IMG/VR virus record: IMGVR_UViG_2925908680_000007
Span: 1 to 64,000 of that record
Strand: one strand, 5' to 3'
Source: a virus
Taxonomy: Duplodnaviria; Heunggongvirae; Uroviricota; Caudoviricetes
Length of the DNA: 64,000 nt
The position numbers were made by a program. The first letter of the stretch is position 1. Each line of letters starts with the position of its first letter. Below are positions 42,001-57,000 of the stretch, piece by piece.

Positions 42001-45000
42001 ACGGCGAACCAGAAAACACTGCAGCGCGAGCAGGAAGTTAAACAGCGCGAAGCGGAAGCCAACATGTTGCGCGCGGAAGCTGCCGGACAGGCTGATGCGA
42101 TTCGCACAAAAGCCCAGGCTGAAGCCGATGCTATTCGTTTACGCGGTGAAGCTCTGCGCCAGAACCCTGGTGTTATGGAGCTGGAAGCCATCAATAAATG
42201 GAACGGCACACTGCCGCAATACATGACCAGCGGCGCCAGTACACCATTTATCCAGGTTAAATAACTTATATGCCCGGCAGGTCGCCGGGCTAAGGGAAAA
42301 GCAGATGAACACCCATAATGCCCAACCGCAAATAATGAACTATGACCCGAATCTGACGTCATGCGGACGCATGACAAAACAAACCGTTCGATTAACTTTC
42401 GGGTTATGGGAATACCGCGAAACATTCGAAGTTACTGTCGGCGGCAATCTGACCGGACTGGATGTTATCAGTTGCGCTATTGAAAGCCTGTACGCAACAC
42501 TGCCTTATGAAGAAGTCGAGGATGAGCGCACAGGGGGAACAGATATCATGGCCACCATTAATATTGGCGAACTGATATGTCAGGATGAAGACCTGTCCGG
42601 AGAACCCTGGCTTGCCGGGATGCTTATCTCAGCAGAAATTATCAGTATTGAACCGCTACAAACATACGACTCTGAAGTTCTCACTATTCAGAGAGCAGGA
42701 GAAAAATGTTCGCTTTGATTAATCAGGGACAACTGTATACCGACAGTGCCGGTTACCCGGTAAAAATTATTCGCTGCATAAATAACACTGTGTTGTACAG
42801 AAGAATGGATGGGCGAACACAGTCGGTAAAAATAAACGATTTTAATGAACTGTTTGAACGGCTCGATCACCAGGAATACCGACAAATTCTGGCAGAAACA
42901 GAACAGGAAACTCATCTGAAAAAATTACGGGCCATGAAAAGGAAATAAAGAATGAATAAAGCGTTTGAGCTATGGGTACGCCAGCGTTACGGCAATCGCT
43001 ATGACCTGACGCGAGATGTTGACGGTTTCTACTGTCGTGAAATTGTGAAACGAATGTTTGAAGTGTGGTGCCACTGCCGTGGGCTGAATGTTGTATGAGG
43101 TGAACTGTGGGGCTGGATTGCGTACCTATATCAACCTACTGCCGCAACGCAGGAGAAACGGTTGATGCCGTTAACAAACGGATACAAAGAGGAATATGGA
43201 AAGAAGGGGTACATGTATTAAAAGTCGACGGAGTTAAAGAACGTTGGGTCGACTTAATGGAGATTACAAAATGGGCAAGAAAGAACAAGGATCACTATCT
43301 CTCCCTAGAGGAGTAACTATTCGCCAGCATAAAACTGGTAGCACTCTGGTTATCACTTTTACATATAAAGGGGTTCTGTGTCGGGAGCCCCTCTCCAGAA
43401 TGGAAGTAAACGCGCGCGGTGTGAAGTACGCCGAGCGTCTGCTGGGAGAAATAAAAAATCAGATTATCGATGGTACCTTCGAATATGCAAAATACTTCCC
43501 CAACTCCCAAAAGCTGGAGTTGTTCGGGGGAGTGAAAAAAAACAAAAATATAAAATCTTACCTGGATGAATACCTGATTATCTGCCAGAACCGTAACCTG
43601 TCACCATCGACAATTAGAGGTTATGAAAAATGCCTGTCGGCGCTGTCAGCATTGCATAAATTTCATGTATCAGAACTGACACCTGCAGTACTAAAAAACT
43701 GGATCGCCAGCAGAAAAACAAAACTGAAAACTATCCGCAATAATCTTTCATTCCTGCGCAGCGCCATAGATGAAGCGGTGACCGATGGTTTGTTAACAAT
43801 AAATCCTGTCACGCTAGTCAGCGCCAGCCGGTATCACGTATTGGACAACACACCAGGCAGTGATGATTACGAGGTCGATCCTTTTACACCAGCGGAGACG
43901 GCAGCAATCTATAACGCCTGTCATTACCCGGAATGGCGAAATCTGTTTCGCTTTGCCTTTAATACAGGACTGCGCAGCTCAGAATTGTGCGCGTTGCGCT
44001 GGATGGATATAGACTTTATCGGCAACACCGCGCATGTTCAGACTGCAAGCGTAGTCGGGGTAATCAAAAGCACCAAAACAAAAGCCGGCACCCGCAAAGT
44101 GCAACTGAACAGCGAAGCGCTGGCGGCTCTTCAGGCACAAAAGCCCTACACGGCGCTAAAGAGCGACTTCATATTCAGCGATCCGAAAACTCGCGCTCCT
44201 TGGGCAAACGCAGATGCGATCCGAAAAAAAGCCTGGGTACCAACCCTTAAAAAAGCTGGTGTACGCTATCGCAATCCGTACCAGACACGCCACACGTTCG
44301 CCACTCGGCACATTAGCCAGGGCGTTAACCTGTTCTGGCTTGCTGGTCAGATGGGGCATAAAGGACCGGAAATGCTGTTCAGACATTACGGCTCTTACCT
44401 TGCAGAATACGATGGAAAAACGGCGATTTCTGCAACCCCGTAACGGCAAAATATTTCAAAATGTTGTACAGAATCAGGACGTTACCGGGACAACAATATG
44501 TACGTAAAATGCACATAATTCATTGTTTGAAAAAATAAATCGTTCATATTCAATAAATTGGATTAATCACGATCACGGGTTCAACTCCCGCCAGCTCCAC
44601 CACTTGCTCTTCCGGATACGTCCGGAGAAATCCTGAAAGCCCGCATGGCACAAGCTCTGCGGGCTTTTTTGTGTCTACCGTTGTCCGAGGATATCCAGCT
44701 AAATCCAGTGATTATTGGTATACGTTTAGGTATACGGTAGGATGTATACCTAAACGCGTATACCAATTCATGAAGGAACGGCTAAAGTGGCAAGAACGAC
44801 ACGCCCCCTGACCAACACAGAAGTTCTGCGCGCTAAAGCGTTAGAAAAGGATCTAACGTTGCATGATGGCGATGGTCTTTTTCTGCTCGTTAAAACGAAC
44901 GGTAAGAAGTTATGGCGTTTCCGTTATCAACGTCCAACAACAAAGCAGCGAACAATGATGGGGCTAGGTGCATTTCCCGCCCTCTCACTTGCTGACGCCC

Positions 45001-54000: not shown

Positions 54001-57000
54001 CAAAAACCCGGCCCGGAACCGGTAACGCCTACCTGACCCGCAAGGGCTTTCCCGACCGGGAATGCCGGATGCTGACCGGCACACACAGAGCCGGTGGCGT
54101 GAGCTGGCGCGCCGGTGACCTTGTGGTGCCACTGTATGACGACAGCGGCGAACTGGTTAACCTTCAGTTAATCAGTGCTGACGGCCGTAAGCGCACCCTG
54201 AAAGGCGGACAGGTCAGGGGCACCTGTCACACCCTTGAAGGACAGAATCAGGCCGGAAAACGTCTGTGGATAGCGGAGGGATACGCGACCGCACTTACCG
54301 TACATCACCTGACCGGTGAAACGGTGATGGTGGCGCTTTCTTCCGTGAACCTCCTTTCTCTGGCCAGCCTTGCCCGGCAGAAGCATCCGGCCTGTCAGAT
54401 TGTCCTTGCCGCAGACCGTGACCTCAGCGGTGACGGCCAGAAAAAAGCCGCCGCAGCCGCAGATGCGTGTGAAGGTGTTGTTGCCCTGCCGCCGGTCTTC
54501 GGTGACTGGAATGATGCCTTCACGCAGTACGGCGGGGAGGCCACCCGTAAGGCCATTTATGATGCCATCCGGCCACCGGCTGAAAGCCCGTTCGACACCA
54601 TGAGCGAAGCAGAGTTTTCCGCCATGAGTACCAGCGAAAAGGCCATGCGTATCTATGAGCATTACGGCGAGGCGCTCGCGGTCGATGCCAACGGCCAGCT
54701 TCTGTCCCGCTATGAAAATGGTGTCTGGAAGGTGCTGCCGCCACAGGACTTTGCCCGGGATGTGGCCGGGCTGTTTCAGCGTCTGCGTGCGCCGTTCTCC
54801 TCCGGGAAGGTGGCCTCCGTGGTGGACACCCTGAAGCTGATTATTCCGCAGCAGGAAGCCCCCTCCCGCCGCCTGATTGGCTTTCGTAACGGCGTGCTCG
54901 ACACGCAGAACGGCACGTTCCACCCGCACAGTCCGTCACACTGGATGCGCACCCTGTGCGATGTGGATTTCACCCCGCCGGTGGAAGGGGAAACGCTGGA
55001 AACCCACGCTCCCGCGTTCTGGCGCTGGCTTGACCGTGCCGCCGGTGGTCGTGCGGAAAAACGCGACGTGATTCTGGCCGCACTGTTTATGGTGCTGGCA
55101 AACCGCTACGACTGGCAGCTCTTTCTGGAGGTGACCGGTCCCGGCGGCAGCGGCAAAAGTATCATGGCCGAAATCGCCACCCTGCTGGCCGGGGAGGATA
55201 ACGCCACGTCGGCCACCATCGAGACGCTGGAATCCCCGCGTGAACGTGCCGCGTTAACTGGCTTCTCACTGATACGCCTGCCGGACCAGGAAAAATGGAG
55301 CGGCGACGGTGCCGGACTCAAGGCCATCACCGGCGGCGATGCGGTGTCCGTTGACCCGAAATACCGGGATGCATACTCCACGCATATCCCGGCGGTGATT
55401 CTGGCCGTGAACAATAACCCGATGCGCTTCACCGACCGCAGCGGCGGCGTGTCACGCCGGCGGGTGATTATTCACTTCCCGGAACAGATAGCCCCGCAGG
55501 AGCGCGACCCGCAGCTTAAGGACAAAATCACCCGCGAGCTGGCGGTCATCGTGCGTCACCTGATGCAGAAGTTCAGCGACCCGATGCTCGCCCGGTCACT
55601 GCTTCAGTCCCAGCAGAACTCAGACGAGGCACTGAACATCAAACGGGATGCCGACCCGACGTTTGATTTTATCGGCTATCTGGAAACCCTGCCGCAGACC
55701 AGCGGCATGTATATGGGGAACGCCAGTATCATCCCGCGTAATTACCGTAAATACCTCTATCACGCCTATCTGGCCTACATGGAGGCAAACGGCTACCGGA
55801 ATGTACTCAGCCTGAAAATGTTCGGGCTGGGGCTGCCGGTGATGCTGAAGGAATACGGACTGAATTACGAGAAGCGCCATACCAAACAGGGGATACAGAC
55901 CAACCTGACGCTGAAAGAGGAAAGCTACGGCGACTGGCTGCCAAAATGTGACGCCCCTGCAACAACCTGACCCACCTGACCGGCATCTGCCGGTCTTTTT
56001 TTTATCCCGACATCCCCCGAAGGTGAACAATCCACTGTTCACCCTTCACCGTATATTCACCCGTTATCACACTGAAATTAAAAGAGAAAAACGAAAGGTG
56101 AACAGTGTGAACAATCAAAGCAAAAAAAACTTTTTTCTTCCGGTGTGATTTCAGCACGGGAAATTAATCCCCTGCACAAGTCACACCGGCAGAATGCCGG
56201 AGGTGAAGAATCGAATGTTCACCCTTCACCCATTATTCACCACCTATCACTATGAAATAAAAGGAGAAAAAAGAAAGGTGAACAGTGTGAACAGTTCTTT
56301 CGAAAAAAAATTTTTTTCCTGTACGATATAGCATCAATCCAAGTAAAAATGCGCTTTCATTTCACATTAACTTACAGCCATTGGTATACGATTAGGTATA
56401 CGCACAAAAACTGAATTAAACAAAATCGTTAAAAATCAAAGCAATATAATATTTATTCAAACTCCGCCAGCCAATCATGATTGGACGGTATAAGGACAAC
56501 ACCAATAAAAACAGGAAGTTAGCAGTCTCAGCAGGACACCGACCAGACGGTGAAGAGACATAAAAGGATACGCAAAGGAGCCGCGGCTCCTGGTGACATG
56601 AAAGCCCACAGATGTGGGCTTTTTCGTTGATGGTCAGAACGACCAGTTCACACCAGCTACCCCGTTCCACGGGGATTCCACACCGGCACCATGGCTATAC
56701 CCCACCCCAAGATGCCCGCTTAACGTACTGCTGAATGAGGCTTTAATACCTGCCTGGTATATTCCACGTCTGCCCGACAAATCATTGACGAAATTACCGT
56801 CACTATTCACTTTCACCCGGTTATCATCGACAAATTCTTTGCGCACAGCCGCCTTCAGCCACGGCTCAACTTCCATACCGTTCCCCAGACGCATGTTGTA
56901 ACTCAGCGTTGCACCCAGTTCACGATATAAACTGCGGGTATCGACTGATTTCGATTCCATGCCATTGGATAAATGATATTCAGGGTTATCAGCGGTGAAC

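Follow-up and report, generated by a model that had tools for sequence, protein, structure and literature searches.

A P4-type satellite with a CP4-57-type integrase module beside an Stx2e-converting prophage that is not a credible helper

Introduction

P4-like satellites are found in almost half of Escherichia coli genomes, and their integrases and hotspot cargos are often swapped. The satellite protein Sid acts on P2 gpN. Satellites of the P4 type need no helper to lysogenise, and an incoming P2-family phage mobilises them (PMC3936717, PMC9122126). The variable cargo between int and cos is a published P4 defence hotspot (PMC9122126, PMC8628076), and P4-like elements adjoining large prophages have already been noted (PMC8628076). 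Here we analyse an 11.9-kb P4-like satellite in a 64,000-nucleotide stretch of DNA (IMG/VR record IMGVR_UViG_2925908680_000007, positions 1 to 64,000; hereafter the window), in which it lies in tandem with an Stx2e-converting prophage at the ssrA gene. An earlier sequence-only reading of the window had left open whether this neighbour, or some other prophage in the genome, could act as its helper.

Two described elements are the natural points of comparison. Phage P4 (X51522 / NC_001609) is slightly smaller (11.6 kb). It has the same gene order and content as the satellite from cos to crr at 97.5% DNA identity, and the same cos 19-mer, type-I iterons, Psid, PLL and PLE. The two differ in their integrases, which are 35% identical and place P4 at a tRNA-Leu site and the satellite at ssrA; in their cargo, gop-beta-cII in P4 and a four-gene ABC-3C operon in the satellite; in the specificity bases of the CI RNA, seqA and seqC; and upstream of PLL, where P4 has three P2 cox-boxes and the satellite a different 3 x 10-bp block. 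The ssrA site of E. coli K-12 is occupied by the cryptic prophage CP4-57, and beyond this lie psaA, an ssrA pseudo-end, and ypjA. The satellite shares with CP4-57 (intA...psaA) the ssrA 3′-end site, a psaA-like attR followed by ypjA, and the integrase family (62% identity). CP4-57, however, is a 22-kb cryptic prophage for which the K-12 annotation lists no psu, delta, sid, epsilon or full-length alpha, all of which the satellite has. The wider P4-like family (PMC8628076, PMC9122126, PMC13586616) has the same Type A set of seven components in the same canonical order, cargo between int and cos/psu, exchanged integrases and adjacent large prophages.

We consider it highly probable that the element is an intact P4-type satellite, composed of a P4 cos-to-crr block, a CP4-57-type ssrA integrase and attachment module and an ABC-3C cargo in the cos-adjacent hotspot, that the neighbouring prophage is not its helper, and that infection by a P2-family phage mobilises it.

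Results

The P4-like core

From 48991 to 56316 the window is 97.5% identical to P4 coordinates 11624–4291 over 7.3 kb, with small indels only. When P4 proteins were compared with the window by tblastn, Psu, Delta, Sid, Vis, Epsilon, ORF151, ORF106 and Alpha all matched at full length with 96.6–100% amino acid (aa) identity and no frameshift or stop, and scans against Pfam and NCBIfam agreed with these gene assignments. On the minus strand lie psu (49155–49727; 190 aa, 98.4% identical to P4 Psu), delta (49801–50301; 166 aa, 98.2%, with two Ogr/Delta zinc-finger domains) and sid (50298–51032; 244 aa, 99.6%). On the plus strand lie vis/ORF88 (51585–51851; AlpA family, 96.6%), epsilon (52431–52718; 95 aa, 97.9%), ORF151 (52711–53166; 98.0%), ORF106 (53302–53622; 100%) and the alpha primase-helicase gene (53637–55970; 777 aa, 99.0%). 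No inactivating mutation was found in int, sid, delta, psu, epsilon or alpha, and the gene list of the satellite includes no capsid, tail or terminase gene.

The cis-acting sites are also in place. The P2/P4 cohesive-end 19-mer of cos, GGCGAGGCGGGGAAAGCAC, is matched exactly at 48972–48990 on the minus strand and nowhere else in the 64 kb (0.02 matches expected). The flank at 48966–49037 is 90–95% identical to the cos regions of P2-like phages, and homology to P4 ends about 6 bp past the 19-mer on the cargo side. Activator sites of the form TGT-N12-ACA, identical to those of P4, are present at the Psid position upstream of sid (51067–51084) and at PLL (51465–51482). By the position logic of known P2/P4 late promoters, PLL transcription is inferred to start near 51528. 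The origin (ori; 51202–51305) contains six type-I iterons, TGTTCACC, and crr (56017–56321) consists of two repeats of about 120 bp with type-I iterons, five of them exact copies (56022–56284). In the whole window there are 15 copies of the iteron, compared with 2.3 expected. The sequence features for Alpha-dependent replication, the ori and crr iterons, are thus present.

All seven components of a Type A element as SatelliteFinder and de Sousa and Rocha define it (int, psu, delta, sid, alpA/vis, epsilon and alpha) are co-localised and full length, and follow the canonical order int, hotspot, (cos), psu, delta, sid, alpA, epsilon, alpha. Six of the seven are at least 96.6% identical to P4; the seventh, the integrase, is of another lineage. 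In sequence terms, the element is a Type A P4-like satellite on every criterion that a sequence can address (PMC8628076). These results bear out the sequence-only reading, which had described a complete satellite with int, the cos 19-mer, psu, delta, sid, vis, epsilon, alpha and both iteron clusters; its further view that the satellite looks functional agrees with the intact state of the genes.

Attachment sites, integrase and cargo

The whole window differs from the chromosome of E. coli cq9 (NZ_CP031546.1; pig faeces, Chongqing) by two single-base indels only, and window 44000–57000 is 100% identical to both E. coli cq9 and U90 (swine). The order of features is smpB, ssrA (698–1060), the 43.5-kb prophage (1064–44575), a copy of the ssrA end (44576–44605), the satellite (to about 56471) and ypjA. 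The satellite occupies 44576–56471. The ssrA-end copy on the plus strand, a 30-bp exact copy of the ssrA 3′ end (CGGGTTCAACTCCCGCCAGCTCCACCACTT), is a junction that both elements share: it is attR for the Stx2e prophage and attL for the satellite. In the attR of the satellite (56384–56471, plus strand) a degenerate ssrA-end core is accompanied by an arm-type site, GGTATACGATTAGGTATACG. The crossover core CCGCCAGC is found at 44588–44595 in attL and at 56464–56471 in attR, and the two cores are separated by 11,876 bp, as against 11,624 bp for P4. The features that had been reported for the span 44606–56480 were recovered at or very near their given positions; the true ends lie slightly farther apart than in that span, and are set by attL at 44576–44605 and the attR core at 56464–56471.

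The attL, the attR and their flanks are collinear with the K-12 series ssrA, CP4-57, psaA and ypjA; in particular, attR and its flank on the ypjA side are collinear with psaA, the attR of CP4-57. Between attL and int, at 44717–44765, are integrase arm-type repeats, TAGGTATAC, in both orientations. This repeat has four copies in the window (0.14 expected), three of which flank the satellite ends. The integrase gene itself (44787–45986, plus strand) encodes a 399-aa tyrosine integrase of CP4-57 IntA type, with the Pfam domains Arm-DNA-bind_3, Phage_int_M and Phage_integrase and a match above cut-off to NCBIfam PRK09692 (585 bits). The enzyme shares 62% identity with K-12 IntA, against 35% with P4 Int, and targets the ssrA 3′ end.

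The P4 gop-beta-cII region is replaced by an operon of four genes with low G+C content (about 30%; 45987–48714), all on the minus strand. The gene at 45987–47684 encodes an ABC/SMC-like ATPase with a DUF2326 C-terminus (ABC-3C ATPase; DUF2326 at 64 bits, PADLOC PDC-M68B at 1e-45), and that at 47671–47904 a 77-aa ABC-3C middle component 6 (MC6 at 50 bits, above cut-off). A 182-aa protein (47891–48439) gave a weak ABC-3C CTD10 match (E = 0.004; 18 bits against a Pfam cut-off of 28), and an 86-aa protein (48442–48702) gave no family match. The 2.4 kb of the cargo that were probed (45990–48400) recur with at least 99.5% identity in 28 complete E. coli genomes of varied host origin. The family matches suggest a cargo of ABC-3C type, probably with an anti-phage role. 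The main text of the two accounts of the P4 hotspot that were searched contains no mention of ABC-3C, DUF2326 or PDC-M68. The CP4-57/ssrA-type integrase and attachment module, the ABC-3C cargo in place of gop-beta-cII and the Stx2e-converting nature of the neighbour had all been missed in the sequence-only reading.

The RNA immunity cassette

Within the 97.5%-identical block, divergence from P4 is concentrated in two short stretches: the immunity cassette and a cassette upstream of PLL. The immunity region includes the PLE promoter (TTGCCT-18-TATAGT), which is identical to that of P4, and a leader with seqA and a terminator (51887–52000, plus strand; Rfam isrK and c4-a1b1). The leader/target matches at 51910–52000 scored 69.4 bits for isrK (gathering threshold 50) and 44.6 bits for c4-a1b1, just under its threshold of 46.7. 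The CI immunity RNA, with seqB in its loop, lies at 52099–52186 on the plus strand (Rfam C4, 74.4 bits; threshold 45), and is followed by seqC at about 52190–52235. An Ash/Icd-like open reading frame (ORF; 51848–52438, plus strand) overlaps the immunity region; it corresponds to the P4 'cI ORF137'/eta region, with 81.9% aa identity over the P4 ORF.

The CI RNA loop has two 7-nt complementarities to both seqA and seqC, as in antisense-RNA immunity of the P1/P7/P4 type. These are GTAGGAA and CTCGAAG in the satellite, and GTGAGAA and TTCACAGG in P4. The specificity bases of seqA, seqB and seqC are all altered jointly relative to P4: the satellite and P4 each keep their cognate pairing, whereas no complementarity between the immunity elements of the one and those of the other reaches 6 nt. 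Joint change with cognate pairing retained is to be expected only where selection maintains a working immunity system. On the basis of the pairing, the satellite is predicted to be heteroimmune to P4. At least four alleles of the CI-RNA specificity bases were seen among IMG/VR P4-like contigs (loci L016–L024).

The neighbouring prophage as a candidate helper

Thirty-five P2 proteins were compared with the window by tblastn. In the neighbouring prophage the matches were to tail proteins only, and P2 Q, P, O, N, M, L, R, S, Cox, C, A and B had no counterpart in the window. The sole Ogr match in the window is the satellite's own Delta. The capsid protein of the neighbour is of the lambda/21 gpE type, not gpN/gpO/gpQ, and its terminase is of the Nu1/A type with a phage-21-type cosB. 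No P2-type cos was found in the Stx2e prophage, and no phage-21-type R sites were found in the satellite. The Ogr/Delta site TGT-N12-ACA is not enriched (19 sites, compared with 16.9 expected), and it is absent from every intergenic gap of the tail module. Activation of the neighbour's tail genes by Delta was also considered, and no evidence for it was obtained; the only two TGT-N12-ACA sites in the tail module are intragenic. The neighbour thus lacks the capsid target of Sid, a terminase for P2-type cos, the partner activator of Delta, Cox, and the C protein targeted by Epsilon, and it is therefore not a credible helper.

In about 24 further complete E. coli genomes the satellite, at 98–100% identity, lies directly beside ssrA with the Stx2e phage absent. 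As these genomes carry it alone, the tandem is incidental. We conclude that the arrangement reflects shared use of an attachment site rather than a relation between helper and satellite. Tandem use of tRNA and tmRNA attachment sites is common.

Search for a helper elsewhere in the genome

To look for a helper outside the window we used chimeric DNA queries, each joining a satellite-specific anchor to a probe, so that the number of places matched per record revealed additional matches to the probe. The probes were P2 gpN with 500 bp of gpP, run in a sensitive blastn mode, and the P2-type and W-phi-type cox genes. E. coli cq9 and U90, which carry the exact tandem, each gave a single place per record, and so have no P2 gpN/gpP-like, P2-cox or W-phi-cox DNA detectable with these probes. 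With the gpN/gpP probe about 1000 records fell in the 60–80% identity band, indicating that divergent relatives (186-like and others) are detectable. P2-like capsid/terminase DNA was present in 19 of 28 satellite-carrier genomes, and in 2545 of 5426 (about 47%) complete E. coli genomes overall.

A P2-like prophage with a gpN capsid elsewhere in the genome, which had been put forward as an alternative source of help, was therefore not found in cq9 or U90 with the blastn gpN/gpP probes. The helper question is thereby largely settled: the neighbour lacks P2 N/O/Q/L, P/M, Ogr, Cox and C, and no other resident prophage of this kind was found in cq9 or U90 with these probes. Since helper-free lysogeny is the known lifestyle of P4, the lack of a resident helper is no puzzle. 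Most likely the satellite awaits an infecting P2-family phage.

The cassette upstream of PLL

P2 Cox has been reported to bind just upstream of the PLL activator site (PMC3936717). At P4 9176–9205, three 10-bp 'ori type 2 repeats' each fit the P2 cox-box consensus TTAAA(G/C)NC(A/C) on the opposite strand. In place of these three cox-boxes the satellite has a variable cassette at 51412–51445, a 3 x 10-bp block that reads GTCCTTCAGAACCCTTTGAGACCCTTCCAG. It contains no P2 cox-box at up to one mismatch, and its flanks are identical to those of P4. When P4, the window and 21 IMG/VR P4-like contigs were compared, three discrete alleles of the cassette were distinguished, each well conserved and set in identical flanks. 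The P4-type allele occurs in P4 and 4 contigs, the window-type allele in the window and 12 contigs, and a third type, which reads CCAGCTCCTTCCAGAGCGTTTTAAAGCTATCTGGCGCTGATGTGC, in 5 contigs (L030, L033, L034, L035 and L038). No locus was returned when the cassette flanks were searched in species-representative genomes. The idea that immunity and cox-box alleles form one co-inherited 'regulatory module' was rejected, as the alleles assort independently.

Each allele was compared with whole helper genomes in an unbiased local-alignment scan. As a positive control, the best match of the P4 allele in the P2 genome was the Pe-Pc switch (25901–26050). The best match of the window allele, in reverse complement, in W-phi (NC_005056) was at 22650–22676, where GGACTGGAAGGG is matched exactly and is followed by CAAAG..TTCTGA. 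This match scored 37, compared with a genome mean of 15.3 (standard deviation 2.9), and 1 of 60 shuffled blocks reached 37 anywhere in the genome. This W-phi segment has the attP core on one side and the P′ Int arm sites on the other, which is where Cox binds in the attP of P2. Cross-comparisons were at background (score 27). The third allele matched best the C-cox intergenic (Pe-Pc) regions of the P2-like phages SI7 and ev239.

W-phi Cox reportedly neither binds P2 cox-boxes nor activates P4, and its published site is a 12-nt direct repeat in Pe-Pc (PMC5009727). A search of the cassette for this repeat gave one match at 3 mismatches, which was equalled by 114 of 2000 shuffles and is insignificant alone. 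A degenerate box derived from the cassette, RYCCTTYNR, was counted in the switch regions of nine P2-like phages and gave nothing. Among the 28 complete carrier genomes a W-phi-type cox was present in 8 and a P2-type cox in none, against backgrounds of 13.0% and 13.9% respectively; a naive binomial test gives p = 0.023 for W-phi-type and p = 0.015 for P2-type cox. The co-occurrence agrees in direction with the alignments but is weak, and the genomes are clearly not independent.

We tentatively propose, at somewhat less than even confidence, that the block upstream of PLL may be an exchangeable helper-sensing cassette, existing in several alleles, that imitates the DNA to which the Cox proteins of particular P2-family helpers bind. 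For each of the three alleles the best match falls in a known or predicted Cox target of a different class of helper. W-phi would then be a candidate cognate helper of this satellite, judging from the likeness of the cassette to W-phi 22650–22676, although the published 12-nt Cox repeat fits the cassette weakly. No earlier description of Cox-site alleles in P4-like elements was found in the literature searched, which left much of the older P4 and W-phi work outside.

The Stx2e-converting prophage and flanking sequences

The neighbouring Stx2e-converting prophage is a 43.5-kb mosaic on the minus strand (1064–44575). Its tail genes lie at 1259–14044, its head and terminase genes at 15319–23411, stx2e at 26748–27983 and int at 43271–44443 (plus strand). 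The tail module follows the P2/R-pyocin order V-W-J-I-H-G-FI-FII-E-T-U-X-D, with 22–58% aa identity to P2 where tblastn gives matches; E and T gave no tblastn match and were placed from the RefSeq annotation. The head and terminase genes Nu1, A, W, B, C, D, E and FI have about 75–78% DNA identity to phage 21 and lambda. The earlier description of a P2-type tail combined with a lambda-type head and terminase is thus correct. Alignment to the left end of phage 21 places a phage-21-type cosB at about 23430–23600 on the minus strand, in which R3, I1, R2 and R1 are conserved at about 23430–23560; R-type sites cluster there only. The lambda cosN 12-mer is absent from the 64-kb window at up to one mismatch, and the cosN position of the prophage (23430–23610, minus strand) reads GGGGGTCATAGCAC..., unlike the lambda/21 cohesive end GGGCGGCGACCT.

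The Stx2e phage P27 (AJ298298) matches the early, replication, Q and stx2e-lysis region at 95.6% identity over 68% of window 24001–44577. The morphogenesis module does not match P27, and no phage in the collection resembles it closely. The prophage therefore shares a P27-like early region with P27 and differs from it in the morphogenesis module. It has a LexA/CI-type repressor and relies on a Q antiterminator for late control. The integrases of prophage and satellite are 25% identical, and have no relationship closer than membership of one family. The prophage described here is in ssrA, whereas 28 Stx2e prophages surveyed used parB, potC, yccA, yciD or yecE (PMC8705337).

The two 1-bp indels that distinguish the window from cq9 fall in the head region (17588–19204 and about 15700–16115). 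In the window the S49 peptidase/scaffold gene (17588–19204) is a single uninterrupted ORF of 538 aa, whereas the cq9 annotation gives it a frameshift. The window is therefore from a sister strain of cq9 or represents a corrected assembly, and the ORF structure suggests that the head module of the Stx2e prophage may be functional.

Three tRNA genes lie at 28074–28327, just upstream of stx2e; ARAGORN predicts Arg-TCT and Met/Ile-CAT, and RefSeq adds a 'tRNA-OTHER'. Stx phages typically carry such a tRNA cluster upstream of stx. The left arm of the Stx2e prophage after ssrA (1061–1200) resembles the native chromosome downstream of ssrA/psaA (56474–56620), with CAATAAAAACAG...GACCAGAC... in common. 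The phage attP thus imitates the 3′ flank of ssrA together with its terminator. This downstream flank is also matched by phages LLS and Ayreon. On the other side of the satellite, ypjA (56634–60018), which encodes an adhesin-like autotransporter, is split: its beta-barrel end is a separate 108-aa ORF (56634–56960), and the passenger part is annotated as a pseudogene without a C-terminus. Past ypjA, at 60200–64000, are a recombinase fragment, ypjCB and another tyrosine integrase gene from about 63170, which suggests a further island in an ssrA-proximal array.

Discussion

The sequence comparisons argue for an intact P4-type satellite that, as we picture it, would be held quiescent by its own CI-RNA immunity, with the Stx2e prophage as another element, unrelated to it, that has used the same attachment site at ssrA. 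Mobilisation would need a P2-family phage arriving by infection, none being resident in the matching genomes. Helper Cox and Ogr, together with Delta, would then switch on PLL and Psid; Alpha would replicate the element from ori and crr; Sid would drive helper gpN into small capsids suited to the 11.9-kb genome; and the helper gpP/gpM terminase would cut the P2-type cos.

Several points weigh against this account. Excision, replication and packaging of the satellite are all inferred from its sequence, and the defence function of the cargo is a prediction. The attR core has just 8 nt in common with attL. The psaA attR of K-12 CP4-57 is degenerate in a similar manner. CP4-57 excises in spite of its degenerate attR. 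The helper search covered P2 gpN, 500 bp of gpP and two cox types in chromosome records at blastn sensitivity, and a very divergent P2-family prophage would escape it. Because of the two 1-bp indels relative to cq9, the window may come from a third, closely related strain with other prophages.

These last points bear on the possibility that a P2-family helper is resident in the source genome and was missed, being too divergent or absent from the view because the source is neither cq9 nor U90. The narrow set of probes, the lack of base-for-base identity with cq9 and the P2-like capsid DNA in about 47% of complete E. coli genomes would all allow for this. The same blastn mode, however, recovered relatives at 60–80% identity and still found one place each in cq9 and U90, and we judge a missed resident helper to be very unlikely. 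A helper role for the Stx2e prophage itself, with its P2-type tail and lambda-type head co-opted by the satellite and its terminase packaging the satellite DNA, is scarcely tenable. The physical adjacency of the two elements, the P2-order contractile-tail module and head genes that seem intact in the window, including the S49 peptidase ORF, would fit such a role. Against it, the prophage has no homologue of gpN, gpO, gpQ, gpL, gpP, gpM, Ogr, Cox or C, and its capsid is of the lambda/21 gpE type, whereas Sid acts on P2 gpN. It has a phage-21-type cosB and a different cosN, whereas the satellite lacks such R sites and has the exact P2/P4 19-mer. The tail proteins are just 22–58% identical to P2, TGT-N12-ACA sites are neither enriched nor present in the tail intergenic gaps, and the satellite occurs in about 24 genomes without the Stx2e phage.

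It is also conceivable, though improbable, that the element has become a cryptic or domesticated island comparable to CP4-57 of K-12, kept for its ABC-3C cargo and no longer mobilisable. The absence of a helper from the matching genomes, the degenerate attR and the use of the same site as the cryptic CP4-57 are in line with this. The seven P4 core components, ORF151, ORF106, cos, ori and crr are nevertheless intact, with 96.6–100% identity to functional phage P4 in the P4-derived part; the compensatory co-variation in the immunity elements points to ongoing selection on satellite functions; and near-identical copies in unrelated E. coli from pigs, cattle, humans, birds and waste water point to recent horizontal spread. 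An intact satellite that would be mobilised by P2-family infection therefore remains the reading that we prefer.

Swaps of integrase and cargo are already on record for the family, as is a position next to large prophages, and with helper-free lysogeny taken into account the helper puzzle dissolves. The arrangement is otherwise ordinary, and the reading of the cassette upstream of PLL is the single lead worth an experiment. If that reading is true, this satellite would be woken by W-phi-type Cox and not by P2 Cox, and the cassette would explain the reported failure of W-phi Cox to activate P4. Helper specificity would then have a layer at derepression that is independent of the capsid and terminase hijack genes. 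If confirmed, the cassette would provide a simple sequence read-out of the helper class of a satellite, which is now lacking from satellite and helper catalogues.

The compensatory changes in the immunity RNA provide clean in-silico evidence of selection on the element as a satellite. In porcine Shiga toxin-producing E. coli, a probably mobilisable satellite with a probable defence cargo sits beside an Stx2e-converting phage, and any infecting P2-family phage could therefore move the cargo, but not stx.

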